Shown here piece by piece: positions 2,455 to 35,224 of a DNA stretch of 35,224 bases (its first letter is position 1; every line of letters starts with the position of its first letter). The DNA comes from a virus (Duplodnaviria > Caudoviricetes). The notes beneath the pieces are model-generated. The model did not search any database. It was not told the DNA's origin and saw only the letters and a program-made list of their open reading frames with translations. A program made the position numbers and the translations under genes. The stretch covers positions 1-35,224 of the IMG/VR virus record IMGVR_UViG_3300005805_000244; one strand, written 5' to 3'.

Positions 2455-3135
2455 ATGAAAATTCTTGTAAAGTTTCCGACCCGGTCAAGACCTGATAAGT
2501 TCCTGTCAACACTCAAAGGTTACATCGATAACACATACGATGAATCAAATATTGACTACTTAATCACATTGGATTCAGATGATCCGTCAATGAATGATGA
2601 TGTTTTGAAATCAATCAATGCATTGTCCAAAAACATCACAATCAATCATGGCACATCGACATCAAAGATTCATGCAGTCAATCGTGGGTTGGAGCTTTAC
2701 AAGAAACATTGGGATATTATTGTTCTTGCATCTGATGACATGGTTTGTATGCGTAAGCATTGGGATGACATCATCATTCGCAACATGAAGAGTTTCTATT
2801 CTGATACCGATGGAACATTGTGGTTTTGGGATGGTGACATAAACACAAAGAAGAATGGTCTTTGCACCATGAACATCATGGGCAGAAAATATTATGATAG
2901 ATTCGGTTACCTATACCATCCATCATACATCAGTCTTTGGTGCGACAATGAATACACGGATGTTGCAATGCAACTGAACAAGATGGTATTCATTGATGAT
3001 GTCTTATTCAAGCACATTCATTTCAGCAATACACCAGGAATGCGACCAGATGCATTGATGCAGAAGACTCAATCTTATTTCATGCGTGACAAAGAGAACT
3101 ACTATAAACGCAAACAAATAAACTTTGGACTATGA
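2455..3135 (+). CDS. GT-A fold (GT2-like) glycosyltransferase
   Basis: N-terminal KFPTRSRP, VLASDDM DxD-like motif, SLWCDNE, terminal HIH. Confidence 0.8.
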   Translation: MKILVKFPTRSRPDKFLSTLKGYIDNTYDESNIDYLITLDSDDPSMNDDVLKSINALSKNITINHGTSTSKIHAVNRGLELYKKHWDIIVLASDDMVCMRKHWDDIIIRNMKSFYSDTDGTLWFWDGDINTKKNGLCTMNIMGRKYYDRFGYLYHPSYISLWCDNEYTDVAMQLNKMVFIDDVLFKHIHFSNTPGMRPDALMQKTQSYFMRDKENYYKRKQINFGL

Positions 3136-3881
3136 GTCAAATGATTTGCACACATAATGCCGGAGCGACATCGTGCATGACAATGCGATTGCATGAGGCA
3201 ATTGAGTTCTATGAACGATTTGGATACTATCCCGATTCAATTGATTCATCAAAACAATTTGCATGGTATCAAGATTCGCACTATCAAAATGTCGCACAAA
3301 ATGTCTTTGGTAAATATTGGAACAGACCATTGCCATATGTGCCATTCAAAGAAGATTGGCAATATAGATGGTATGATGATATTAATGTTGATTTATTGAC
3401 ACAAACTGCAAATGCATTGTGTCCATTGCATGAAGAGATTCTTGACATTGCAAAAGACATGATTGAACGCATGGGAAATCGAACTGCAATTCTTTATCGT
3501 GGTAATGATAAAATCAAAGAGGTCGGAAGATGTCAATATGATGTGATTGTTGAAATGGCAAATCAAAGCAAATCAAAACAATTCATTGTGCAGACTGATG
3601 AGCAAGAGTTCTATCAATATTTTGTTTCTCATTTCAATGACACAATTGCATTTGATGAGATACCAAGAATTAGTCGCAATTACAATTCATATGTGATGCC
3701 ATCAAAATCTTATCGCAATGCATTCCTTTGCAACTTTCTTGCCGCACTTTATGCCATCGGTCAAGCAAGGAAACTGATACTTACAACTGGCAACACAGGA
3801 TTGTGGACAATGATTTATCGGGGTCACACAAAGAATGTATGGCAATACAATGGAAAGTTCAATGAATGGAAAAAACTATGA
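3132..3881 (+). CDS. GT-B fucosyltransferase-like protein (NodZ/GT23/O-FucT-like)
   Basis: LYRGNDK resembles the HxRxxD motif; FIVQTDE and LILTTGN resemble the later fucosyltransferase motifs. Confidence 0.6.
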   Translation: MSQMICTHNAGATSCMTMRLHEAIEFYERFGYYPDSIDSSKQFAWYQDSHYQNVAQNVFGKYWNRPLPYVPFKEDWQYRWYDDINVDLLTQTANALCPLHEEILDIAKDMIERMGNRTAILYRGNDKIKEVGRCQYDVIVEMANQSKSKQFIVQTDEQEFYQYFVSHFNDTIAFDEIPRISRNYNSYVMPSKSYRNAFLCNFLAALYAIGQARKLILTTGNTGLWTMIYRGHTKNVWQYNGKFNEWKKL

Positions 3882-4471
3882 AACCAATTCTGACAATCGC
3901 AATACCAACAATCGTTTCAAGGCAAGAAAAGTTTCTTGCATTGATGTCATACATTGAAAAGCAAATCGAAGAATCAAAGTTGCAAAAGAAAGTTGAAGTC
4001 ATCTTTGAGGTTGACAACAAGGAAATCAGCATCGGAGCGAAACGGCAGAAGTTGATTGATAGAGCAAATGGCAAATACCTTGTGATGATTGATGATGATG
4101 ATTGGATTGCAGATGATTATGTAAGTGCAATAATCAAAGCAACGAATGAGGATCCTGACTGCATCGGCTATCTTGAAGATTGCAACTTTGAAGGTGACCG
4201 AAAAGCGACATCATGCATATCAAAAGAATACAATCGATGGGCATCGAATGTCGGAATCTATCAATATGTTCGTTCACCATTCTTTAAGATTCCAATCAAG
4301 ACTGAATTGTGCAAACAAGTTGGATGTTCTGACTTACGATTCGGTGAAGATGCAGACTTTGCCAAACGCATTTATCCACTCATAAAAAGTGAATGTTTTA
4401 TCAATAAAAAGATGTATTTTTACCGATACCAAAACGAAGAGTTCAATTCAAAATACGGAATCAGAAGATAA
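3878..4471 (+). CDS. GT2-family glycosyltransferase
   Basis: LTIAIPT, SIGAKRQKLI, GKYLVMIDDDD, GEDADF; start taken at the ATG overlapping the previous stop. Confidence 0.85.
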   Translation: MKPILTIAIPTIVSRQEKFLALMSYIEKQIEESKLQKKVEVIFEVDNKEISIGAKRQKLIDRANGKYLVMIDDDDWIADDYVSAIIKATNEDPDCIGYLEDCNFEGDRKATSCISKEYNRWASNVGIYQYVRSPFFKIPIKTELCKQVGCSDLRFGEDADFAKRIYPLIKSECFINKKMYFYRYQNEEFNSKYGIRR

Positions 4472-9685: not shown

Positions 9686-10309
9686 ATGAACATTTACAAA
9701 GGTCAATTCTTTCAAGACAAGTATGTCAACAATAAGTTCTTCAAGAACAAAGACAATGGTGTCTTCCTTGACATTGGTGCAAACGATGGCATCACTTTTT
9801 CAAATACATATTTCTTTGAGAAAGAACTTGACTGGAAAGGAATGTGCATTGAACCACTTGATTCTGCATATGAACAATTGGTGTTGAATCGGTCAAGCAT
9901 AAACATCAAAGGTTGTGCATGGACTTGTGATACAACAATGAAGTTCAGACAAGTCAATGGTGGTGGTGAGATGTTGTCAGGTCTTGTTGATGCTTATCAG
10001 ATGGAGCATCAGAAACGCATTGAACTTGAGTCGATGAATGATGGCTATGTTGACATCGATATCAATTGCTATGACATCAACGCATTGCTTGACAAACACA
10101 AGATGTATGACATTGACTTATTGTCAATTGATACCGAAGGAAGTGAGTTCAACATCTTGCAATGTATTGATTTCACAAAGTTCAAAATCAAAGTCATCAT
10201 TGCAGAAAACAACTACAATGATTTTGAAGTCAGAAGATTGTTGGCATCCAAAGGATACATCTTCGATTCAAGACTTGACATCGATGACATCTTTGTCTTG
10301 GCTACTTGA
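9686..10309 (+). CDS. FkbM-family SAM-dependent methyltransferase
   Basis: QFFQD, FLDIGANDG..SNT, WKGMCIEP, LSIDTEGSE. Confidence 0.9.
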   Translation: MNIYKGQFFQDKYVNNKFFKNKDNGVFLDIGANDGITFSNTYFFEKELDWKGMCIEPLDSAYEQLVLNRSSINIKGCAWTCDTTMKFRQVNGGGEMLSGLVDAYQMEHQKRIELESMNDGYVDIDINCYDINALLDKHKMYDIDLLSIDTEGSEFNILQCIDFTKFKIKVIIAENNYNDFEVRRLLASKGYIFDSRLDIDDIFVLAT

Positions 10310-17813: not shown

Positions 17814-18168
17814 AAAAGCGACTTTTTTTTATTTGATTAATAGTAATTATTGTTATTACTATTAGGTTATCCTTGTAGATTTAGAGCATCGTTCAAGCAT
17901 AGTTGTTCTATCCTCACTTTCTTATTAAAAAAAAGTGAGTTGAACTATGCTCTGACTTTTTTGGACATCCTCGTGAGTTTGTCGCACCGCCATTTGCATA
18001 CATAGGTCAACGCATCGTGCCTATGCTTGGAGTCTATTTACGAAACTAATGCGTTCCGTCAGTCATATGGCTCTCTCCTTTGTTGCACCATTGGTCTTTG
18101 ACTGCATCCCCTTGTAGACCTTATTTCGATTTGCCCAAGTGTTAATCTCATTCCCCCAACAAATCGAC
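17813..18168 (-). ncRNA. candidate ~350-nt structured non-coding RNA or RNA-based origin element
   Basis: No credible ORF; at least 5 stems, a possible pseudoknot, an upstream TATATTTG, and G-U pairs favouring the minus strand. Confidence 0.55.
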
Positions 18169-18169
18169 A

Positions 18170-18177
18170 CAAATATA
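18170..18177 (-). promoter_or_regulatory. -7 promoter element TATATTTG pointing into the non-coding element
   Basis: Plus strand CAAATATA; TTG about 22 nt upstream on the minus strand. Confidence 0.6.
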
Positions 18178-18377: not shown

Positions 18378-18614
18378 ATGTCTAACACTAAAAACAACAA
18401 CACAATGGAAACACAAAACAAATCAATCATTCCAAAGGGAGCATTTTCAGAAATGCTGTCCGCATTTAGATATTTCGACAAAGTAGATGATGGATGTGGC
18501 TATGATAGACTTAATGCAAAAATGAGAATGATTCAAATGACATATCAGTTATCTGATGATGATTTATGCATTGTTGAGAAATGGGCATATGATAAATATT
18601 ATCAAGCCAAATAG
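18378..18614 (+). CDS. early hypothetical protein (true start may be 18405)
   Basis: Follows promoter; A-rich leader before METQ. Confidence 0.65.
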   Translation: MSNTKNNNTMETQNKSIIPKGAFSEMLSAFRYFDKVDDGCGYDRLNAKMRMIQMTYQLSDDDLCIVEKWAYDKYYQAK

Positions 18615-18675
18615 TTAAACCAAACGGGGAGCAACATCCTACACTGCATATTTTAAACCTTAAAAATCAAAAGCA

Positions 18676-18882
18676 ATGAAAACAACAACAACCATCAGCA
18701 AAAGAGAAATCAAAGTGACTGCAAACAAGTCAAAAAAGACCTACACCATCCGCACCTCTGCCGGAAAGTATCGCACCAACCCGATGTCATCTGCCGATTT
18801 TAACGATGCCGACTATTGGACAGGAAATGATTGGCAGAACTTTCTCAACACCTGTATGTTCGAATACTACGCAGTCAATTAA
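18676..18882 (+). CDS. early hypothetical protein
   Basis: CTTAAAAAT leader motif upstream. Confidence 0.7.
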   Translation: MKTTTTISKREIKVTANKSKKTYTIRTSAGKYRTNPMSSADFNDADYWTGNDWQNFLNTCMFEYYAVN

Positions 18883-18903
18883 TCATCTTAAAAATCAAAG
18901 GCA

Positions 18904-19113
18904 ATGAAGACTCCTGAAAAATATGATTCAATCAAACGAATCATCGGTGGTGAAACCGACATCATTGAGGTATATAATGGCAGAATAAAATTCAGATATT
19001 GTCAATCCGATACTTTTAATGTTTGGGTTAACATAGACTGCATCGAATGGAATGATGAACTGGATGCATGGGTATTTACCAAAGCTCCGTCTTATGATAG
19101 GGCATTCTCATAA
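18904..19113 (+). CDS. early hypothetical protein
   Basis: CTTAAAAAT leader motif upstream. Confidence 0.7.
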   Translation: MKTPEKYDSIKRIIGGETDIIEVYNGRIKFRYCQSDTFNVWVNIDCIEWNDELDAWVFTKAPSYDRAFS

Positions 19114-19130
19114 ACTTAAAAATTAAAGCA

Positions 19131-19238
19131 ATGATACACGAAATCATCATCGTAGGACTAATAGCAAAGGCAATGGTCTATGGATTCCTCAAGTTCACGC
19201 AATACTGCGAATCAAAAAAAAATGATAAAGTCATTTGA
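19131..19238 (+). CDS. 35-aa single-TM peptide, not in ORF track (MIHEIIIVGLIAKAMVYGFLKFTQYCESKKNDKVI)
   Basis: Translated by hand; same CTTAAAAAT leader as its neighbours. Confidence 0.6.
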   Translation: MIHEIIIVGLIAKAMVYGFLKFTQYCESKKNDKVI

Positions 19239-19264
19239 TTATTTCAAATCACTTAATACATTTG
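19234..19264 (+). promoter_or_regulatory. Bacteroidota sigma-A type promoter TTTG-N19-TACATTTG
   Basis: TTTG 19234-19237, TACATTTG 19257-19264; palindrome ATTTGA-N5-TCAAAT overlaps the -33 element. Confidence 0.75.
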
Positions 19265-19313
19265 CACACATTATCAACAATCATTTATGTCTTACTCTAA
19301 AAATTAAAATCAA

Positions 19314-19511
19314 ATGGAAACACAAATGCAAAATCAAAAAGAAGTCAAAGTTCGTGGTGGCAAAAGACCAAATGCCGGACGCAAACCATCAGGAAATCGC
19401 AAGGTGCAAGTCAGCATCTATGTCGAAGAGAAAATCATTGAAAGTCTTGGTGGAATGACTACCGTCAAAAGCATTCTTCTTGATGTCATTGCTAAATCAA
19501 GCAATCAATGA
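19314..19511 (+). CDS. small DNA-binding protein (RGG.R.NAGRKP motif plus RHH-like segment)
   Basis: RGGKRPNAGRKP followed by VQVSIYV strand and helices. Confidence 0.7.
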   Translation: METQMQNQKEVKVRGGKRPNAGRKPSGNRKVQVSIYVEEKIIESLGGMTTVKSILLDVIAKSSNQ

Positions 19512-19717
19512 CAACGAAACTGATTCACATCACCGACCTATCTGGCAAAGACAAATACTATTTTTGTTTTGAGTTTGCCAACTCCGTTGTCCAACAGGAA
19601 ATCAATCGTTTTGAATATGAACTCTTGAAAGACGCAGAAGAGGCACACTACACCAATGAGGTCACCAAACTGAAGCATAAGTATAGGATGCTTGAGCAAG
19701 AACAACAAAATCAATAA
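19508..19717 (+). CDS. hypothetical protein
   Basis: ATGA overlap. Confidence 0.65.
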   Translation: MTTKLIHITDLSGKDKYYFCFEFANSVVQQEINRFEYELLKDAEEAHYTNEVTKLKHKYRMLEQEQQNQ

Positions 19718-19737
19718 TCATCAAAAACAACAACGCA

Positions 19738-20019
19738 ATGGACACATTTATCAAAGCAATGATTTGCGAACTGGTCAACAAAGTTTGCGACATCCATCTT
19801 CACACTACTTGTGAGGCAGACATCAAGGTGAATTTACAAGTCGGGTCAATCACTATCATCATTGGTCATTCAGACCGAATGCTTGATTGGTTTGATCCGA
19901 TTTACTACACTACCTTGTATTTTAAGCATGACAATGAAAAAACATTTGCACAATCCTATTTGGACACCATGCTTGATTTGCAACAAGTCAGTAGAAATAA
20001 TGCAATTATTTTGATTTGA
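19738..20019 (+). CDS. hypothetical protein
   Basis: A-rich leader, fills the gap. Confidence 0.65.
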   Translation: MDTFIKAMICELVNKVCDIHLHTTCEADIKVNLQVGSITIIIGHSDRMLDWFDPIYYTTLYFKHDNEKTFAQSYLDTMLDLQQVSRNNAIILI

Positions 20020-20023
20020 TTGC

Positions 20024-20031
20024 TACATTTG
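20024..20031 (+). promoter_or_regulatory. -7 promoter element TACATTTG
   Basis: TAnnTTTG upstream of the recombination genes. Confidence 0.65.
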
Positions 20032-20072
20032 CACAATCAACAACATATTATTAACAACTTAAAAAAAACACG

Positions 20073-20930
20073 ATGAAATTAAGTAAAGCAACAAGACAAC
20101 AAGTAAAGCTCCGCATGGGTCTATCTGGTGCGTCTGGATTCGGAAAGACCTATTCAGCACTCTTACTTGCCTATGGCATGACCAATGATTGGAACAAGAT
20201 TGCCGTCATTGACACGGAGAACAATTCTGCATCTCTTTATTCTGATTTAGGTGATTACAATGTCTTGGCATTGTCAGCACCATTTTCACCCGAACGATAC
20301 ATTGAAGCCATCAAGACTTGCGAATCGGCTGGGATGGATGTCATTATCATTGATTCAATCACCCACGAATGGGAGGGTGTCGGTGGATGTCTTCAAATTG
20401 TTGATTCTTTGGGTGGTCGGTTTCAAGATTGGTCAAAAGTAACACCAAGACATCAAGCATTTATCAATGCCATCTTGCAATCATCCTGTCACATCATCAC
20501 AACCGTTCGCAGAAAACAAGACTATGACATGACCAAGAATGAAAAAGGCTATGTCCAAGTTCAAAAGGTCGGCACAAAAGAAGTGACAAGGGATGGATTT
20601 GAATATGAACTGACCATCAACTTTGAGTTTCTGAATGATAAGCATATGGTGAGGGCATCAAAGGATAGGACATCGATGTTTAGCGGAAAGCCGGAGTTCG
20701 TTATCACATCAGAAACAGGTCGCATGATTCTTAACTGGTGCAACAAAGGTGTTGAATCAGCAAAGATAGAAGTCGCAGAACAAAGTCTTGACCTATTGGA
20801 TGCATTGTTTGGTGTTGAATCAGCAAACGATTTGATTGAACTGCAAAGTGTTTGGAACAATTATGCATCTTTGCAATCAAACAAGGATTTCATCAATGCA
20901 GTAAAAGCAAAGAAAGGAGGTCTGAAATGA
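20073..20930 (+). CDS. AAA-family ATPase, Sak4-like recombination protein
   Basis: Walker A GASGFGKT, VIDTE, IIIDSITHEW. Confidence 0.8.
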   Translation: MKLSKATRQQVKLRMGLSGASGFGKTYSALLLAYGMTNDWNKIAVIDTENNSASLYSDLGDYNVLALSAPFSPERYIEAIKTCESAGMDVIIIDSITHEWEGVGGCLQIVDSLGGRFQDWSKVTPRHQAFINAILQSSCHIITTVRRKQDYDMTKNEKGYVQVQKVGTKEVTRDGFEYELTINFEFLNDKHMVRASKDRTSMFSGKPEFVITSETGRMILNWCNKGVESAKIEVAEQSLDLLDALFGVESANDLIELQSVWNNYASLQSNKDFINAVKAKKGGLK

Positions 20931-21418
20931 GTCTTTCACTCTATCAAATCACGGAGCAATACAAGCAAATTGCCGAAGCATTAATCGAATCAGGTGGCGA
21001 AGTGTCACCTGATATCGAAGACGCATTGAAAATCAATCAGCAGAATCTTCAAGAAAAGGCGGTGAACTATGGTTACATCATTAAGCAATCAGAACTGGAG
21101 TGTGATATGATTGATGCAGAGATTCAGCGACTGACAAAGATGAAGAAAGCAAGGCAGAATGCCATCGAAGAATTGAAAGCAAGGCTGACATCGGCAATGA
21201 CCTATTTTGAAATCAATGAAATCAAATCACCAACATTGAAACTTTCATTCAGAAAATCAGAGTCAGTTGAAATCATCAATGAGGCATTGATCCCGGATCA
21301 ATACAAGATGCCACAAGCACCAAAGATTCTGAAGATGGCAATCAAAGAGGCACTCAAGAATGGTGAACCAGTAGATGGTGCAGTCATCGAAACCAATTAC
21401 AACCTACAAATCAAATAA
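20927..21418 (+). CDS. siphovirus Gp157-family protein
   Basis: SLYQIT..Y, EIQRL..MKK, LSFRKSESVEI, IKEALKNGEPVDGA. Confidence 0.85.
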   Translation: MSLSLYQITEQYKQIAEALIESGGEVSPDIEDALKINQQNLQEKAVNYGYIIKQSELECDMIDAEIQRLTKMKKARQNAIEELKARLTSAMTYFEINEIKSPTLKLSFRKSESVEIINEALIPDQYKMPQAPKILKMAIKEALKNGEPVDGAVIETNYNLQIK

Positions 21419-21442
21419 TTATTAACCTTAAAAATCAACACA

Positions 21443-21778
21443 ATGAAACTTACAACAAATCTTTTCGGAGAAATCATCATCACCATCAGCAAGGCAGAGG
21501 TCGATGCATTGATGAACAACAAATCAATTGAAACATCATCTTCCAAAATCAAGTTGCCAACAATGCACAACAAGTCTTTGCAGTTTCTCAAAGAAGTCAA
21601 AGGTGTCTTTGGGTCAAAGGAAATCAAACGCAGAGATGCAACATTGCGTAAATTGGCAAACAAATATGACATCATTGATTTATCGCAGTTGCTTTCAAGA
21701 TTACGCAAATCAAACTGCATCGATGTCAAGACTAAAGGAGTGATGAAAAGAATTGATACTTTTGTGGTAAAGTATTAA
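21443..21778 (+). CDS. hypothetical basic protein, possible winged helix
   Basis: CTTAAAAAT leader; LSQLLSRLRKSNCIDV. Confidence 0.65.
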   Translation: MKLTTNLFGEIIITISKAEVDALMNNKSIETSSSKIKLPTMHNKSLQFLKEVKGVFGSKEIKRRDATLRKLANKYDIIDLSQLLSRLRKSNCIDVKTKGVMKRIDTFVVKY

Positions 21779-21781
21779 TCG

Positions 21782-22162
21782 ATGGCAACTGGACTACTTG
21801 GGCAGACATTCACCGATGGTGCAAGAATAAATATCAAGCCGATGTCGGTGAATGCTGCCTATCGTGGTCGCAGATACAATACAAAAGAACACATACAATG
21901 GGAACAACTTGTCATGTTTTCTTTACCATCCATCGAATTGCCATCACCTCCATTTGAAATCGCATTTACATTTGGTTTATCATCAGTCAACGCAGATGGT
22001 GACAACTGCATCAAAATCGCACAGGATGTCATTGCCAAGAAATATGGATTCAATGACAAGCAAATCAAAAGATGGTTGGTTGAAGTCATCAAAGTTGACA
22101 AAGGCAAAGAGTATTTTGAGTTTCACCTTAACACATTAAACAATGACACAAAAAGAACTTAA
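21782..22162 (+). CDS. RusA-like Holliday junction resolvase
   Basis: PMSVN, DGDNCIK..QD, NDKQI catalytic pattern. Confidence 0.75.
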   Translation: MATGLLGQTFTDGARINIKPMSVNAAYRGRRYNTKEHIQWEQLVMFSLPSIELPSPPFEIAFTFGLSSVNADGDNCIKIAQDVIAKKYGFNDKQIKRWLVEVIKVDKGKEYFEFHLNTLNNDTKRT

Positions 22163-22604
22163 ATTGAAAGCAGAAATGTTTACGGACAATCTTTTGCACC
22201 AACACATTTACATTGCTGGTTACAACCAAGCATTGATTGATTTGACAAAGCAAGAATCAAAAGAAATCGTTCATCCTTTTCTAAATGACAAAGATTTTGT
22301 CGAAATTTGGCAAGAATTTATCAAGGTCAAGAAGAAGAAGAAAGCATCGGTGTCATCACGCATTCTGATGCGACAACTCCAAAAGCTTGAAGACCTTGCA
22401 AACAACAATGTCAAAATCGCAAACGAAATAGTGACCAAATCAGTAATGTCGGGATGGTCAGATGTGTATCCTTTAAAAAACAACACCAATGCAATTACAA
22501 CCAGTCAACAAAGCAATTCAGCATCAGCAAAAAGAGAAAGCATTAATCGAATGGAAGACCTTGCCAGAGCAATCATACAAGGCAATACAGGTAATCAGTT
22601 TTGA
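22143..22604 (+). CDS. protein resembling the C-terminal domain of phage replication initiators
   Basis: WQEFIKVKKKKK...LQKL...ANEIVTKSVMSGWSDVYP. Confidence 0.55.
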   Translation: MTQKELKLKAEMFTDNLLHQHIYIAGYNQALIDLTKQESKEIVHPFLNDKDFVEIWQEFIKVKKKKKASVSSRILMRQLQKLEDLANNNVKIANEIVTKSVMSGWSDVYPLKNNTNAITTSQQSNSASAKRESINRMEDLARAIIQGNTGNQF

Positions 22605-23091
22605 TGATGTAATCAAGGCAGAGTCACCATCACTTGCCAAGATGAAAAAGGAATATGGTGACATACATACCAAAGCAATCTTGACAATAATCATCGTTGA
22701 TGTCATCAAATTCTTCAATGTCGGCAAATCAATGTCGGATGTGCAAGTCGGTCAAACGATTGAATTGATTCAGCAAGAATATTGGATGCTAAAACCCGAA
22801 GATTTTAAGTTGTGTTTTAACAATGCCAAGAAAGGAATGTATGGTCAAGTATATGACCGGATCGATGGACAAGTCATCATGTCTTGGTTGCAACAACACA
22901 TTGCAAAACGATTTGAATTTTCAGAGCAACAATCAATGCAAAAGCATGACCGATTGAAAAAGGAAACTGAAACAATGCGTCAGCAACAATTGCAGAGCGA
23001 CAAAGAAAAGCATCAAGAAATACAACGAATCGCAGTTCAGCAATACATCAATAATCAAAAGAACAATGAAGAAAATCAAAATAGGCAGTGA
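22489..23091 (+). CDS. replication-associated protein (DUF6633-like, helicase-loader position)
   Basis: EYWMLKPEDFKLCF..AKKGMYGQVYDRIDGQVIMSWL. Confidence 0.6.
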   Translation: MQLQPVNKAIQHQQKEKALIEWKTLPEQSYKAIQVISFDDVIKAESPSLAKMKKEYGDIHTKAILTIIIVDVIKFFNVGKSMSDVQVGQTIELIQQEYWMLKPEDFKLCFNNAKKGMYGQVYDRIDGQVIMSWLQQHIAKRFEFSEQQSMQKHDRLKKETETMRQQQLQSDKEKHQEIQRIAVQQYINNQKNNEENQNRQ

Positions 23092-24523
23092 CTTTTCTGG
23101 AGTCGGTGCATTCAACCAAGCATTGATGCGACTGGGCATTGATTATGAAGAGGTCTTTGCGTGTGACATGGACAAGTATGCAAGGCAGACCTTCATTCAT
23201 AACTATGGAGAACCAAAGTATTTTCCGACTGATGTCTATAAGAGAGAGATTCCACAGGATTCATTGGACATATACATGACAAGTCCACCATGTCAAGCGT
23301 TCTCATTAGCTGGAAAAAGATTAGGCAAGGATGACAAAAGAGGCATCTTGTTTTTCAATTCACATGAGTTCATCAAGGTGAATAAGCCAAGGTTCTTCAT
23401 ATTTGAGAATGTAAAAGGGTTGTTGTCGGATGATGGAGGCAAGACATTTAGTGAGTGGGTAAATATGTTGGGAGGCAAGTCAGTTAATGGAACGATGGTG
23501 ATGTTTCCTGATGAAGATAGTGTACCATATCACCTCTATTGGCAAGTATTAAATGCCAAAGAACATGGTGTTCCTCAAAATAGGGAAAGGGTTTTTCTTA
23601 TCGGCATCCGTGATGACAAGGATAATAACTTTCGATTTCCAGTTGAAGAGCGTTTGACAAAACGATTGAAAGATGTTTTGGAAGAGGTAGTGGATGATAA
23701 ATACTTTTTAACTGAATCAAAAATTGAATATCTGCAAAGAACTAAAGGAACAAGCTTTGATGTCAATTCAAATATATTAAATCAAACTTTACCAAACGAA
23801 TCAAGAACAATTCAAAGTGGTTACTATAAGTGTCCAAGAGATAACCAGTACATTAAGGTTAAGTCGGCAACATCACTTGGATATGAAGAGGCAACTGATG
23901 GTGATTCAATCTCATTGTGTCATCCTAACTCTGATACAAGAAGAGGAAGAGTTGGAAAGGGAGTTGCTCAAACAATTGATACCACAAACAATCAGGGAGT
24001 GATTCAAATAAATCCAAGCAAGGAAAGTGGAGGCAAACAACCATATCAGCAGAATAGGGTTTATGATGGAGATGGCATATCTCCGGCAATAAATTCAGGT
24101 CAAGAAAATTGGGGTGGCAATATTGTTAGATACACCAGCAAACGATTAAACGAAACCCTTGATAAGTTTGATCACGACCTTCCCAAAGACAAGCCGGTAA
24201 TCATTGATGCCGCAAACAATACCTTTGTTTCAATACCAACCAATAAATATCAAAAGGAAATTGAACAATCATTAAGCCAAGATGTTTGCACAGGCATAGA
24301 TGCAAGTTATTATAAAGGATTTGGAGTAAGGCAAGGTAAGTGCAGGCAAGTAGTTGCACAAGATTACAAAATCCGCAGACTTACCCCAAGAGAATGCTTT
24401 CGTTTGATGGACTTTCCTGACACATTTACATGGACTTGTTCCGATTCTCAAGCATACAAACAAGCCGGAAACTCTATCGTGGTTAATGTGCTATATAAAA
24501 TTCTAAAAAGATTACCAATATAA
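23066..24523 (+). CDS. DNA (cytosine-5)-methyltransferase with long variable region
   Basis: FSGVGA, SPPCQAFS, FENVKG, PQNRERVF, RRLTPRECFRLMDF, YKQAGNS. Confidence 0.95.
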   Translation: MKKIKIGSDFSGVGAFNQALMRLGIDYEEVFACDMDKYARQTFIHNYGEPKYFPTDVYKREIPQDSLDIYMTSPPCQAFSLAGKRLGKDDKRGILFFNSHEFIKVNKPRFFIFENVKGLLSDDGGKTFSEWVNMLGGKSVNGTMVMFPDEDSVPYHLYWQVLNAKEHGVPQNRERVFLIGIRDDKDNNFRFPVEERLTKRLKDVLEEVVDDKYFLTESKIEYLQRTKGTSFDVNSNILNQTLPNESRTIQSGYYKCPRDNQYIKVKSATSLGYEEATDGDSISLCHPNSDTRRGRVGKGVAQTIDTTNNQGVIQINPSKESGGKQPYQQNRVYDGDGISPAINSGQENWGGNIVRYTSKRLNETLDKFDHDLPKDKPVIIDAANNTFVSIPTNKYQKEIEQSLSQDVCTGIDASYYKGFGVRQGKCRQVVAQDYKIRRLTPRECFRLMDFPDTFTWTCSDSQAYKQAGNSIVVNVLYKILKRLPI

Positions 24524-24542
24524 ACAATCAAAAACAATAAAA

Positions 24543-24824
24543 ATGAACAACGAACTGAACATCAATTTCAATCGAATTGAAAACAATGCAGAATCAAACG
24601 CAATTTTGCAATCAAACAAGACGCACCTATCAAAGCAATGCAAGATGTTGCTTGATGCACTCATGCGTGGTGAACATCTGACAACGGCTGAAGCTCTTAT
24701 CTTCTACGGAATCGGTGACATGAGAAGAAGAGTCAAAGACCTCCGTGATGCTGGATATCAAATCAAGGATTCATTGCAGAAAAATCGTTACAAGAAATAC
24801 TATATAGAAATCAAATGTCAATAA
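24543..24824 (+). CDS. winged helix-turn-helix protein
   Basis: LLDALMRGEHLTTAEAL..YGI...RRVKDLRDAGYQI. Confidence 0.75.
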   Translation: MNNELNINFNRIENNAESNAILQSNKTHLSKQCKMLLDALMRGEHLTTAEALIFYGIGDMRRRVKDLRDAGYQIKDSLQKNRYKKYYIEIKCQ

Positions 24825-25432
24825 TCAAATTGCAAGAACGCATCGGTGTCAAGGCAGATGGCATCTTTGGTCGCAACACATTCAATGCTGCCATGCAACA
24901 CTTTGGAATGACTCCGATTCGTGCTGCACATTTCTTCGCACAATGTGACCATGAAACAGGAGGATTTAAAATATACACCGAAAATCTGAATTACTCTGCA
25001 TCGGGATTGATGAGGACATTCAAGAAGTATTTCAATGCTGAACAAGCATCAGCATATGCAAACAAACCGCAAATGATTGCCAATCGTGTATATGCTAACC
25101 GCATGGGTAATCGTGATGAATCAACTGGTGATGGGTATAAATATAGAGGCAGAGGTGCAATTCAATTGACAGGGTTGGATAATTATTATCAATTCGCTTT
25201 GTGGTTCAAGATGCCATCAATACTTTTGAACCCGGATCTTGTTGCAACTGATTATGCTTTTGAATCTGCATTATTCTTTTTCAACAACAACAAGTTGTGG
25301 AGCATATGCGACAAAGGAATAGATGAACGCACCATTCGTGAGGTGACAAAGAAAATAAATGGCGGCTATAATGGCATCAATGACCGAATCGATAAAACCA
25401 TAAAGTATTACAACTATGCACAATCCGTTTGA
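24815..25432 (+). CDS. endolysin, GH19 chitinase-like with N-terminal peptidoglycan-binding motif
   Basis: ADGIFGRNT, HFFAQCDHETGG, ENLNYS, YRGRGAIQLTG, TKKINGG.NG..DR. Confidence 0.92.
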   Translation: MSIIKLQERIGVKADGIFGRNTFNAAMQHFGMTPIRAAHFFAQCDHETGGFKIYTENLNYSASGLMRTFKKYFNAEQASAYANKPQMIANRVYANRMGNRDESTGDGYKYRGRGAIQLTGLDNYYQFALWFKMPSILLNPDLVATDYAFESALFFFNNNKLWSICDKGIDERTIREVTKKINGGYNGINDRIDKTIKYYNYAQSV

Positions 25433-25640
25433 TGAACTAACACAGGAAGACAATGAATCATTCTACAATCACCTCATGTCAATATGGGAAATCACACCGG
25501 ACAAGGTAAAAGAACGGTTCAGACGCAATCAACAATGTTTGATGTGTGATGAGTGCAAAGGGTATGTTTCATCAGTTCAGAAAGCAATAATCGAAGCAAA
25601 GAAAAAGAAATATGAAGAATCAAAGACAATGGACAACTGA
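25416..25640 (+). CDS. hypothetical protein with CxxCxxC
   Basis: Overlaps both neighbours. Confidence 0.55.
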   Translation: MHNPFDELTQEDNESFYNHLMSIWEITPDKVKERFRRNQQCLMCDECKGYVSSVQKAIIEAKKKKYEESKTMDN

Positions 25641-26253
25641 AGAAGTGCAACTACTGCGTGACCTTTATCCCATTAAGTCAGCAATTACAATTGGTGCAAT
25701 GATTAATCGGTCACGGACATCGGTGTCATCAAAGGCGAATCAATTGAAGATTCGCAAGGCAGATGACTGGGCAACCAACCCGGAGGCAAAAAGATTCTTC
25801 AAAGGTCATATGCATACACTTAATCGAAAGCCTCACAACAAAGGCAAAAAGCAAAGTGACTATCTGACCGAAGAGCAAATTGAACGGATCAAACAAACGC
25901 AATTCAAGAAAGGCAGCAAACCATCACATACAATGCCTGTTGGAACAATCATCACTCGCACAAATAATTTGCGAAAGACATATCAGTTTGTGAAAGTAGA
26001 TGAAAAGAAATGGTTATTTTTGCACCATAAGATTTGGATGGATGCATATGGTAAAATACCAAAAGGTCATGTGATAGCATTCAAAGACAAAGACACAATG
26101 AATGTCACAATTGAAAACCTATATATGCTATCAAAGGAAGAACATTGTCACAATAATCGTGACTCAAAATATCCAATGGAACTGCGTGAACTTATCAGAT
26201 TGAAAAACAAACTAAAAAAAGAAGCATGGCAAAGAACAAAATCGAACACTTGA
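25612..26253 (+). CDS. HNH endonuclease-domain protein
   Basis: LHHKIW...GKIPKGHVIAFKD....N..IENL; FKKG repeats. Confidence 0.85.
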   Translation: MKNQRQWTTEEVQLLRDLYPIKSAITIGAMINRSRTSVSSKANQLKIRKADDWATNPEAKRFFKGHMHTLNRKPHNKGKKQSDYLTEEQIERIKQTQFKKGSKPSHTMPVGTIITRTNNLRKTYQFVKVDEKKWLFLHHKIWMDAYGKIPKGHVIAFKDKDTMNVTIENLYMLSKEEHCHNNRDSKYPMELRELIRLKNKLKKEAWQRTKSNT

Positions 26254-26453
26254 GGGATCATCTCTTTGAGGCAATAGAAATGCTCAAGGATGAGGAAAGC
26301 AACATGACCGTTGACAAAGCAGAGGCAATAGCATCATTGTCGCAGCAAATAATCAACACGGCAAAATTAGAAATAGATTTTGCAAAGACCGTTGATTCAA
26401 TGAATGGACTATCAACACCTACCGAATTTCTTCAAAAACAATTAAACAAATAA
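26226..26453 (+). CDS. conserved phage protein typically adjacent to this HNH type
   Basis: LRDHLFEAIE.L....KAEAI..LSQQIINTAK. Confidence 0.75.
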   Translation: MAKNKIEHLRDHLFEAIEMLKDEESNMTVDKAEAIASLSQQIINTAKLEIDFAKTVDSMNGLSTPTEFLQKQLNK

Positions 26454-26457
26454 AATT

Positions 26458-26688
26458 ATGGAAACAAAAATCAACACAGGAGCAATCTTCAAAAACAACA
26501 AGAAGACATCAGAAAAAGCTCCGGACTACAAAGGCAAAATCAATGTTGATGGCAAAGAGGTTGCCATTGCTTGTTGGGTAAGACAATCACAAACAACTGG
26601 AGAGTCTTATTTCAGTTGCAAGATTGAAGAACCATATGTCAAGCCACCACAAGACACTCCGGATACCATGAATGATTTACCATTCTAA
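26458..26688 (+). CDS. small OB-fold/SSB-like protein (DUF736-like)
   Basis: GAIFKN..K...APDYKG, ACW, C-terminal DLPF. Confidence 0.75.
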   Translation: METKINTGAIFKNNKKTSEKAPDYKGKINVDGKEVAIACWVRQSQTTGESYFSCKIEEPYVKPPQDTPDTMNDLPF

Positions 26689-26700
26689 ATAATCAAAGCA

Positions 26701-26952
26701 ATGAACAAACAAGAAACAAGTCTTGATTGGTTGATTTCGCAAATCACAACAAGCAAGATGTCTGCAAAGGAAGTGATTGCAAAAGCAAAGGCAATGCACA
26801 AGGAAGAGATAATTGAAGCATACTGCACAGGATGTCTTCATATGGCAGAGGATGAAACCATCTTTCCAAGAGAAACAAGTGAGAGATACTATCAAACAAC
26901 CTACTGCGAAAACCCTCAACCAAAACCATTCATTCCATTCATGTATCGATAA
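26701..26952 (+). CDS. hypothetical phage protein
   Basis: TSLDWL...AKAMHKEEIIEAY...YYQTTY pattern. Confidence 0.7.
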   Translation: MNKQETSLDWLISQITTSKMSAKEVIAKAKAMHKEEIIEAYCTGCLHMAEDETIFPRETSERYYQTTYCENPQPKPFIPFMYR

Positions 26953-26964
26953 AAAAACAACACA

Positions 26965-27168
26965 ATGAACCCACAAGAAAAAGCAAAGGAAATTTATGAG
27001 TATTGGTTGGATATGTTAAATGAACAAGCAATTGACCATCCAAACATCCACCAACTAACAAAGGAATGTTGCTACACAATGATAGACATCATACGCAGTT
27101 CAGCATTCCCGAATGTTACATGGGGTGACTATTGGATGGAAGTAAAAGACCAAGTCAAATGGCTATGA
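26965..27168 (+). CDS. hypothetical phage protein
   Basis: PQEKAKE....YWMEVK pattern. Confidence 0.7.
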   Translation: MNPQEKAKEIYEYWLDMLNEQAIDHPNIHQLTKECCYTMIDIIRSSAFPNVTWGDYWMEVKDQVKWL

Positions 27169-27446
27169 AAATAAGCAATGGCATTCTGAATTGCAATGTG
27201 CTGATTCATTCGCCAACACTTACTGACATAGGTGTTGACAATGAAGACTGGATAAACATATGCATAAACATGGATGCCATTGCATCCATCAGGCAAGACT
27301 ATGCAGAAACGATTGTTGATGAATCAGCGGTCATCACTCTCATCGGAATCAATGACCCTCACATCGTTGACATTCCATACAAACAATTGATTAATGAATG
27401 GGCAAAATATAAATCAAATGAAATTGACACCAGAAGTAATCATTGA
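27165..27446 (+). CDS. hypothetical protein
   Basis: ATGA overlap start. Confidence 0.6.
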   Translation: MKISNGILNCNVLIHSPTLTDIGVDNEDWINICINMDAIASIRQDYAETIVDESAVITLIGINDPHIVDIPYKQLINEWAKYKSNEIDTRSNH

Positions 27447-27807
27447 CACCATATGCAGAGCAATGGAAATCAATGTCGATGATGTTGTATTGAATAAGAC
27501 ACGCAAGGCAGAAGTGGTCATGTGCAGACATATATGTTTCTATTTCATACAACAATATGTGAAATCAAAAGCATATCCCGATAAACCCATTGAATATGTC
27601 GCAATCGCAAGAATCTTCAACAAGAATCACGCAACAATCATTCATGCCATTCGTAAGGTCAATGACTATATGAAGTTCAATCTAAAGTTCAGAGAGCGGA
27701 TATATATCTATACGCAGATAATCGAACGGCAAATGGATGAAACACTTTGCAATTGTTGTGGTTCAAAGTTGACATTTGAAAACGCAAACAACAAATCATT
27801 GCATTGA
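27418..27807 (+). CDS. DnaA C-terminal (domain IV)-like HTH protein
   Basis: TRKAEVVMCRHI, IARIFNKNHATIIHAIRKV (compare DnaA RDHTTV.HA). Confidence 0.85.
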   Translation: MKLTPEVIIDTICRAMEINVDDVVLNKTRKAEVVMCRHICFYFIQQYVKSKAYPDKPIEYVAIARIFNKNHATIIHAIRKVNDYMKFNLKFRERIYIYTQIIERQMDETLCNCCGSKLTFENANNKSLH

Positions 27808-29421: not shown

Positions 29422-29612
29422 CAAAGAAGAGCAGAGCAAGACATATGGTCTTGGAACTTGAATTGAAATATAGCATTCAAAGAAGCAATGCACTTGAACT
29501 GGCAAAGTGGTCAGTTGAAAATACCATACGAACAATGGCATCACTTGACATCGAATCAACAAAGATGCTTGAGTATTGGAAAGATATCAGAAGAGAATTG
29601 GAGTTGCTATAA
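29418..29612 (+). CDS. hypothetical protein
   Basis: ATGA overlap; YWKDIRRELE resembles the C-terminus of 26965..27168. Confidence 0.6.
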   Translation: MTKKSRARHMVLELELKYSIQRSNALELAKWSVENTIRTMASLDIESTKMLEYWKDIRRELELL

Positions 29613-29768
29613 AAAACAAAAGCACCATAGCAACTTTCACCTTGCTTGATGCTTTGTTTCGCCACGCACACACGGGAACGCAACGATTTTTGGGAGAGGA
29701 AAATGCCGACCAACTTACGGAGTCGGTCGGCACTAACACAACACAATGAAGGGTGCAAAGAACAACAG
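29612..29768 (-). ncRNA. candidate ~155-nt small RNA
   Basis: Minus-strand TATATTTG at 29771-29778, GC-rich hairpin 29704-29732, terminator-like hairpin with U-run ending near 29612. Confidence 0.55.
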
Positions 29769-29807
29769 GACAAATATAAATAGTAATTGAATACCTATAT
29801 CAATTAG

Positions 29808-29816
29808 TTATTCACA
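29808..29816 (+). promoter_or_regulatory. DnaA-box consensus TTATTCACA between divergent promoters
   Basis: Exact TTWTNCACA match. Confidence 0.5.
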
Positions 29817-29852
29817 CGATAGCAACAATCGTGATTGTGTTTTTCAATTATG

Positions 29853-29860
29853 TATATTTG
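29853..29860 (+). promoter_or_regulatory. -7 promoter element TATATTTG
   Basis: TAnnTTTG just before ATG 29866 (near-leaderless). Confidence 0.6.
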
Positions 29861-33993: not shown

Positions 33994-35224
33994 TGTTCAC
34001 ATTCTACTTTGACAACACGATTGTCAGCAATCCAATCAATTGGTCTGAATTGAGTGAAAAGATTGAACGCAATGATGAATTGCGTGGTCTATTCATAAAG
34101 ATTGACAAGACATTGACATTCACCGAAGATGCATATGCATATCTATATTCAATTAAATCACAATTAGGTTATTGCCAATTTGTATCGTTTCGCATATTGA
34201 AAGAATGTGGCAACACAAAGCAACAAATATTCACAGGCAACATTCGAATATCAGATTGCAAATTCAATCTTTCAAAATGCACCGTTGAATGTAGCATTGA
34301 AGATGATTCTTATGGTGCAAGGATATTCAATAATAAAAGCATAAAGACATTTATCAATAGTGGATTCAGTAAGAATGGTCTTGCAATTACTCCAGCAAAT
34401 ACATATCGTATGTTTTTGATTGAACCATCAACCAATGTTGCAAGTGTTTTATATGTTGAAGTGTTTGATGTCATGGAATGCTTTGAATATTTGGTCAAGT
34501 TTATGACTGATGGACAAATGAATGTTGTTTCTGACTGGTATACAAATCTTCCATCAAATCAAAAGATTTGCATCACAACAGGTGCAGAACTACGAAAGAA
34601 ACAACACTTGAATGTTGATGTTCCATCCATTTCATTTGATGACTTATTCAAGGAGATGAACAAGAAGTTCAATCTTGGAATGTCGGTTGAGTTAATCAAC
34701 AATGTTCAGACATTGCGTATTGAACCGATGACATACTTTTTCAATCAGACATCATCATTAAACACAAATAACATTCCAGAATTGCTTGAATACATTGATA
34801 CATACAATCTTTATTCAAATGTTAAATTGGGATGTAGCAAAGCGGTTGAGTTTGACAATACAATTCATTCGTTGCCACCCATTCGATTCTTGACATTCAA
34901 TGAAGAAAATTACATTATTCAAGGTCAATGCAACATCGATAGAGAACTTGATTTGTCGAATGACTATGTAATTGATAGCAATGTCATTGAGCAAGTTGCA
35001 TTCACAAACACAAACGATACTGGCAATGATAAAGATATTTTCATGATTCAATATGAACCATTGATGATATTGCCGACATATGTATTGTCAGTTATGTGGA
35101 ATGATATCACAACACAACCACCTGTGTTCTTCAATGAAACATTAACCAATGATAATGTTGCCTTGAGATGGGATGTGCAAGGTGCAATTGCACAATTCTT
35201 GAATGCTGGAAACACCAAGTTCAT
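33993..35224 (+). CDS. N-terminal part of tail-tip/hub-like protein (MFTFYFDNTIVSNPINW...), continuing at position 100
   Basis: ATG overlaps the TMP stop; frame open to the end of the window; missed by the ORF track because no stop occurs inside the window. Confidence 0.8.
   Translation, partial: MFTFYFDNTIVSNPINWSELSEKIERNDELRGLFIKIDKTLTFTEDAYAYLYSIKSQLGYCQFVSFRILKECGNTKQQIFTGNIRISDCKFNLSKCTVECSIEDDSYGARIFNNKSIKTFINSGFSKNGLAITPANTYRMFLIEPSTNVASVLYVEVFDVMECFEYLVKFMTDGQMNVVSDWYTNLPSNQKICITTGAELRKKQHLNVDVPSISFDDLFKEMNKKFNLGMSVELINNVQTLRIEPMTYFFNQTSSLNTNNIPELLEYIDTYNLYSNVKLGCSKAVEFDNTIHSLPPIRFLTFNEENYIIQGQCNIDRELDLSNDYVIDSNVIEQVAFTNTNDTGNDKDIFMIQYEPLMILPTYVLSVMWNDITTQPPVFFNETLTNDNVALRWDVQGAIAQFLNAGNTKF
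35126..35224 (+). repeat. 99-bp terminal overlap, copy 2
   Basis: Identical to 1-99. Confidence 0.97.

Follow-up and report, generated by a model that had tools for sequence, protein, structure and literature searches.

A putative small-RNA gene behind terL of a freshwater phage, with a predicted seed antisense to early-gene starts of the same genome

The window, by which we mean the whole analyzed stretch of 35,224 nt, holds the genome of a freshwater phage. Because its ends are identical over 99 nt (positions 1-99 and 35126-35224), the genome is taken to be circular with a length of 35,125 bp, and one long gene spans the join. Freshwater and lake runs from 11 studies contain the phage. It encodes a terminase, a portal, a tape-measure protein, an endolysin and, for recombination, a Sak4-like/Gp157 pair. 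The structural block also houses two glycosyltransferases and a methyltransferase (2455-4471 and 9686-10309), and a DNA methyltransferase lies at 23066. From the TAnnTTTG boxes ahead of the operons and the A-rich leaders without Shine-Dalgarno motifs we infer a Bacteroidota host; TAnnTTTG is the consensus given for Bacteroidota promoters in the accessible parts of PMC7366714 and PMC9723704. A scan of genome contigs for a host or prophage returned one match, a 25% terminase in an unrelated genus, and no prophage relative. Integrase, partition and antirepressor families were not found among the 57 ORFs scanned against PHROGs, which does not prove the absence of such genes since many of these ORFs had no family at all.

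Directly behind the DNA-packaging gene terL is a non-coding unit on the minus strand. It opens with a Bacteroidota-type -7 promoter box of the TAnnTTTG form (29771..29778), which reads TATATTTG at 29778-71. With the box at -12 to -5 relative to +1, a position taken from the accessible text of PMC9723704, transcription is predicted to start at 29766 and the first six bases, GUUGUU, occupy 29761..29766. The seed (29736..29750; UUCAUUGUGUUGU at 29750-38) is the mirror of an early leader with its start codon, and its anti-AUG portion is predicted to lie in a loop closed by a weak stem of 4 bp. A GC-rich hairpin followed by four U comes next (29700..29734, arms 29704-11/29725-32); a promoter-terminator detector chose it as the first terminator, and it may possibly act as such. 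Further on are a middle hairpin, G.U-rich on the minus strand (29659..29686), and a terminator-like hairpin (29611..29658) whose long U-run ends at 29611, at the stop codon of gene 29418. The latter hairpin was not in the list of a generic terminator scan. The predicted RNA would thus be about 67 nt, ending near 29700, or about 155 nt, ending at 29611. Box, seed segment, hairpin arms and U-run, together with a 14-codon plus-strand ORF at 29746, were all found where the preliminary description had placed them. Between the unit and a plus-strand TAnnTTTG box ahead of the structural-gene block (29853..29860) there are two short inverted repeats, 29815-29833 and 29786-29805, which are possible operator sites; their sequence is not conserved in the two close relatives introduced below. 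The element matched no Rfam family at E <= 5, and a comparison with INPHARED phages gave four records with chance matches of 28-29 nt only. That the unit is a 3' UTR folding back onto its own leader was ruled out, as there is no minus-strand gene upstream.

The minus strand of the element folds with z = -4.25 (none of 200 shuffles as good), and the plus strand with z = -2.1 (7 of 200). Strain contigs from four runs in four studies provided four variant haplotypes; the two contigs with a depth under 5 both repeat haplotypes of deeper contigs. These haplotypes carry 16 stem substitutions, none of which breaks a minus-strand pair: they form six double changes (29709/29727, twice and in different ways, 29711/29725, 29710/29726, 29630/29645 and 29627/29647) and four single changes. 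Four of the double and three of the single pair-keeping substitutions fall in the GC-rich hairpin, two double changes are in the terminator-like hairpin, and one single change converts a G.U to an A-U pair in the middle hairpin. By random placement all pairs would remain intact with a probability of 0.001, 0.005, 0.002 and 0.05 for the respective haplotypes. Template switching can produce double changes in DNA hairpins without selection on an RNA. The polarity of the G.U pairs is for this reason the better argument for a minus-strand RNA: three of the four single changes create a mismatch in the plus-strand fold where the minus-strand fold still has a G.U pair. The promoter box is unchanged in the strain contigs, with flanking changes at 29770 and 29779, and neither the first six bases nor the seed carries a substitution. 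The invariance of the seed differs from the stems (0/15 versus 8/24, p 0.015) but not significantly from the spacer (0/15 versus 7/74, p = 0.6). The proposal that the element is a structurally selected small-RNA gene on the minus strand is well supported by these patterns. Of the original suggestion of an sRNA gene, the gene itself was thus strengthened by the compensatory changes and by the presence of a unit in relatives, and the action as an sRNA is argued from sequence.

Two close phages were found, G001 and G002, with terminase identities of 81-82% and capsid identities of 82 and 74%; with the window they make up the three members of the clade in the collections searched. G001 is a fragment cut within the early block, and the gene starts of both relatives come from a simple caller and include errors, whereas those of the window were curated by hand. 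In the window the early block (18378-27807) and the structural genes share a strand; in G001 and G002 the early block is on the opposite one, an inversion. The detector, which searches for a promoter plus terminator outside genes and is blind to targets, finds a U/G-rich unit behind terL in the window, in G001 (about 66 nt) and in G002 (about 61 nt), one such unit per genome. In all three phages the TAnnTTTG box is at the same place, and the promoters of the unit and of the structural genes point away from each other. The units share no similarity by blastn, and neither relative aligns to the gap. More distant relatives mostly have the structural-block promoter immediately after terL; a unit behind terL occurs in 2 of the 48 labelled rows among the matches listed. 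Rfam gave nothing at gathering score in five related loci.

The first six bases, GUUGUU, are common to the three units. A pattern scan for the promoter plus GUUGUU gave 71 loci, 16 of them intergenic and 7 with a terminator, including G001, G002, tRNA leaders and a further orphan unit in G012; a looser motif was found in 3 of 46 Sak4-bearing records. As a family signature GUUGUU was ruled out, as tRNA leaders of other phages carry the same start. Since it also opens tRNA transcripts of other phages, the hexamer is treated as a feature of the promoter and is probably part of the promoter or initial transcript, not of the seed. Bases 29766-29756 equal the transcript starts of tRNA genes in other Bacteroidota phages (L188, L236, L204, L223), and this tRNA-like start suggests a strong promoter of the stable-RNA type. 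The first bases of the predicted RNA also look like a possible boxA antitermination signal.

An examination of the start regions confirmed the reported exact matches of the seed, with 13 nt at gene 26965, 12 nt at gene 21443 and 11 nt at 18405. An 11-mer from the seed occurs exactly at three places, the element included, and with one mismatch it has 8 matches where 3.3 are expected, a number reached by one of 100 shuffles. That the segment can pair with the phage's own early starts was supported and could be extended. A contiguous helix of at least 11 bp with at most one G.U pair is possible at 5 of 53 own starts versus 10 of 917 foreign ones (Fisher p = 0.0008). The predicted plus-strand targets are the starts of gene 26965 (26957..26969, 13 bp), gene 21443 (21436..21447, 12 bp) and gene 18405, the first of the early block (18397..18409, 13 bp with one G.U), together with two starts that had not been named before, each with 11 bp and one G.U: gene 19738 (19730..19740) and gene 20073 (20067..20077), which encodes the Sak4-like recombinase (AAA_24). 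Gene 20073 is the first of the Sak4/Gp157 pair and has its own promoter box at 20024. All five belong to early genes, and the net pairing at target starts after opening costs is -11 to -14 kcal/mol. In each of the three phages the top five predicted targets are all in the early block, where mock seeds place 1.6-2.0 of five. Comparisons with controls came out in favor of pairing for the helix enrichment and the 11-mer but not for the whole 32-nt 5' stretch, whose best duplex energies in the window did not surpass those of the controls, shuffled or mock (top-3 p = 0.13 and 0.12). A significant result takes either a 20-nt core, which was chosen after the matches had been seen, or the contiguous-helix measure.

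These numbers should be read in view of the leaders themselves. The own early leaders of the window resemble one another, and their antisense matches as many starts (up to 9), so that multi-target matching is expected from any copy of an early leader. The number of targets is therefore evidence that the seed is a mirror of the early leaders as a class, and not evidence of an activity. The seed of G002 has no overall preference for its own genome and pairs better with leaders of the window (13, 13 and 12 bp) than with its own (11, 10 and 10 bp). Weak matches to the FopS covariance model, far below the cut-off, were observed on the minus strand at 18614-18686 (E 0.02) and 21418-21453 (E 0.13). 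As these fall on the antisense of early leaders, the leaders are of the type that FopS seeds recognise.

A more specific signal comes from the recombinase gene. The longest helix between a seed and the Sak4 leader of the same phage is 11, 12 and 11 bp for the window, G001 and G002, compared with 5-7 bp in the cross combinations. Of the mock seeds taken from the 917 foreign leaders, 1.2-2.0%, at most 0.1% and 1.0-1.2%, respectively, attain the own value. When the mock seeds are A/C-rich, 3-7% of them attain the Sak4 helix of the window and 4-6% that of G002. Over 35 settings of seed length and window the own Sak4 leader has a median rank of 2, 1 and 2 of 30, and a median rank of 2 or better was reached by only one of 78 other promoter-terminator units. 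The pre-set test with hairpin-trimmed seeds, which also covered units outside the clade, gave ranks of 6, 3 and 3 for the own Sak4 leader and none of ten outside units at rank 1; the better ranks stem from a second setting and the sweep of 35 settings, both run after it. The co-variation of seed and target in related phages that the preliminary description had asked for is thus present at the Sak4-like gene, but own-versus-cross energies over all orthologue pairs, genome-wide, revealed no general shift. In this comparison only the Sak4 pair stood out, with -16.8 and -19.8, and with -3.1 for window/G002. The sequences support the view that the seeds of the three relatives, although mutually unrelated, each track their own Sak4 leader.

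Outside the clade ten short U/G-rich units were considered. The unit of G027 (L372:1141 minus) has its own Sak4 leader at median rank 1. That of G033 (L413:9540 minus) has matches of 19, 15 and 14 bp to early leaders of its own phage (p < 0.0005); that of G035 (L379:6179 plus) is enriched for own leaders by energy (p 0.003). The orphan unit of G012 (L272:443 plus) mirrors its own early leaders less clearly. These four units were picked after the detector output had been viewed. The same layout was also seen lying antisense across genuine gene starts, in G009 (L268:3161 minus) and G028 (L407:7012 and L405:6209 minus), and one of these antisense units faces the Sak4 leader itself. Such an arrangement is a possible origin of the trans-acting form.

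The closest known counterparts, as far as the accessible parts of PMC11697453 and PMC7366714 describe them, are FopS (RF04319) and GibS of Bacteroides thetaiotaomicron, which repress mRNAs without Shine-Dalgarno sequences by pairing over the start codon. RbpB is a binding partner of FopS, whose effect on SusC-type mRNAs is to repress their translation, and one FopS copy occurs in a phage (available text of PMC11697453). With these RNAs the window unit shares the TAnnTTTG housekeeping promoter, the single-stranded 5' seed, the terminator hairpin and, by prediction, the pairing at start codons; going by the same portions, the predicted lengths of the short form (about 67 nt) and of the relatives' units (about 66 and 61 nt) are close to the 65-70 nt of FopS. 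It differs in that FopS has multicopy paralogues that target host glycan transporters, whereas the window unit is single copy with a phage-specific seed whose predicted targets are phage early genes. The seed changes with the phage's own leaders, and the long form has extra hairpins, again unlike what those sources report for FopS and GibS. The FopS covariance model gave no match at 29611-29766 at E <= 10 and none in G001 or G002, in a setup in which the control exceeded the cut-off in 1 of 14 genomes. Membership of FopS (RF04319) was ruled out by this negative result and the single copy.

Likenesses exist also with phage RNAs. C4 of P1/P7 (RF01695) and sar of P22, according to the excerpts available of PMC12197685 and PMC5320573, are phage sRNAs that block the phage's own starts with a specificity set by a variable exposed stretch. 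In those accounts C4 acts on an adjacent antirepressor operon, whereas the predicted targets in the window are several scattered early genes including the recombinase; the window unit is further unlike C4 in that it would work without Shine-Dalgarno pairing and sits in a genome where lysogeny genes were not found among the 57 ORFs. The C4 model matched none of the three genomes at E <= 1, and C4 membership was ruled out by this result and by the lack of a three-stem, RNase P-processed fold. Lambda PreS and VpdS of VP882 are likewise phage-encoded trans-acting sRNAs of the lytic cycle, but in the accessible part of PMC12197685 both bind Hfq and a host gene is activated by PreS, whereas the window RNA is predicted to repress phage genes. 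The general features of trans-acting sRNAs are present in the window: the unit has its own promoter and terminator, a conserved RNA structure and no conserved ORF, and an exposed seed that is complementary to start regions elsewhere and co-varies with them, with some settings weaker or negative. To our knowledge, Bacteroidota are generally said to lack Hfq. In the literature covered, from which most subscription papers were missing, no Bacteroidota phage RNA that represses its own early genes and no sRNA aimed at a Sak4 recombinase was described.

In view of the above, we consider it probable that the element is the gene of a FopS/GibS-like trans-acting repressor of early-gene translation in the phage itself. 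Host polymerase with the housekeeping sigma factor would transcribe the RNA from 29766, and the transcript would end near 29700 and/or at 29611. The seed, with its anti-AUG in an exposed loop, would pair with about -8 to +5 of the early mRNAs, that of the Sak4-like protein above all. This would keep the 30S subunit off and block ribosome loading, for which FopS-10 and GibS in Bacteroides offer a precedent of ribosome block at the start (accessible parts of PMC11697453 and PMC7366714). Repression of translation by the window RNA is suggested by analogy with these cases. Because the promoter stands back to back with that of the structural genes, the RNA would most simply accumulate alongside the late transcripts and, at the onset of packaging, turn down recombination and other early functions. 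We propose this timing tentatively and give it somewhat less than an even chance; it is the weakest of the steps suggested here.

The same RNA and targets could serve immunity or persistence, with constant expression that keeps early lytic genes silent, both in the resident phage and in a sister phage that superinfects, in the manner of C4. An ordinary housekeeping box and phage-specific seed/leader pairs, which would give heteroimmunity, fit this role, and the accounts of P1/P7 in the available portions of PMC12197685 and PMC5320573 provide a precedent. The genome contigs without a prophage relative, the 57 scanned ORFs without an integrase or partition gene and the divergence from the structural block in all three phages argue against it, and we regard it as unlikely. 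Another view holds that the RNA mainly represses host mRNAs with strong A/C-rich leaders, in the way that FopS acts on SusC-type transporters and possibly including the phage receptor, and that the phage matches are a side effect of a common style of leader. Since about 1% of the foreign starts (10 of 917) give at least 11 bp, tens of host sites would be expected; moreover, the G002 seed is generic, and, by eye, the anti-AUG and 3' letters of the G001 seed recur in the FopS consensus given in the accessible text of PMC11697453. The enrichment in the window's own genome and the preference for the own Sak4 leader in the three clade members and G027 make this explanation improbable.

The unit might instead be a relic. 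In this view an early gene was lost but left its leader behind, together with a cis-antisense promoter and terminator, and the RNA now made there acts in cis only, by insulating terL from the structural block or by cutting read-through RNA. The units antisense to real starts in G009 and G028, the mutual resemblance of the early leaders and the ability of template switching to generate the hairpin changes are in line with such a history. It deserves little credence, however, given that three unrelated seeds each track their own Sak4 leader and that the G.U polarity points to a minus-strand RNA. Finally, the match could be the leader of a translated micro-ORF, the 14 codons at 29746, whose ATG is in a good Bacteroidota context and whose translation had been named in the preliminary description as the observation that would count against an sRNA. 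One-base insertions behind 29750/29751, at the seed edge, frameshift this ORF in contigs of three of the four runs. It is also not conserved, the relatives having ORFs of 26 and 5 codons with unrelated sequence, the shorter of which begins inside the promoter box. On both grounds translation of the ORF is unlikely, and as an account of the match it is very improbable.

If the repressor reading is correct, the ordering of early and late expression in small Bacteroidota phages that have host-type promoters only could be put down to one RNA directed against a common leader. The co-variation of seed and leader would also provide naturally occurring, orthogonal pairs of RNA and target in a phylum that does without Shine-Dalgarno pairing. 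It is conceivable, if somewhat less likely than not, that Bacteroidota phages encoding no RNA polymerase, sigma factor or recognisable repressor schedule their cycle by an sRNA that mirrors their early leaders, with the seed rewritten in step with the recombinase leader, and that the unrelated phages G027 and G033 arrived at the same device. The device would then be a widespread master switch in which an RNA controls early genes independently of Shine-Dalgarno pairing.

A second non-coding unit is present on the minus strand at 17815-18177, between the late and early blocks. It has a TAnnTTTG box at 18177-70 followed by about 350 nt that fold with z = -4.7, with none of 100 shuffles as good. 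Rfam gave no family for this unit, which is a candidate for an undescribed structured RNA or an origin RNA. It has 70% identity over 279 nt to G002 (E 3e-18).
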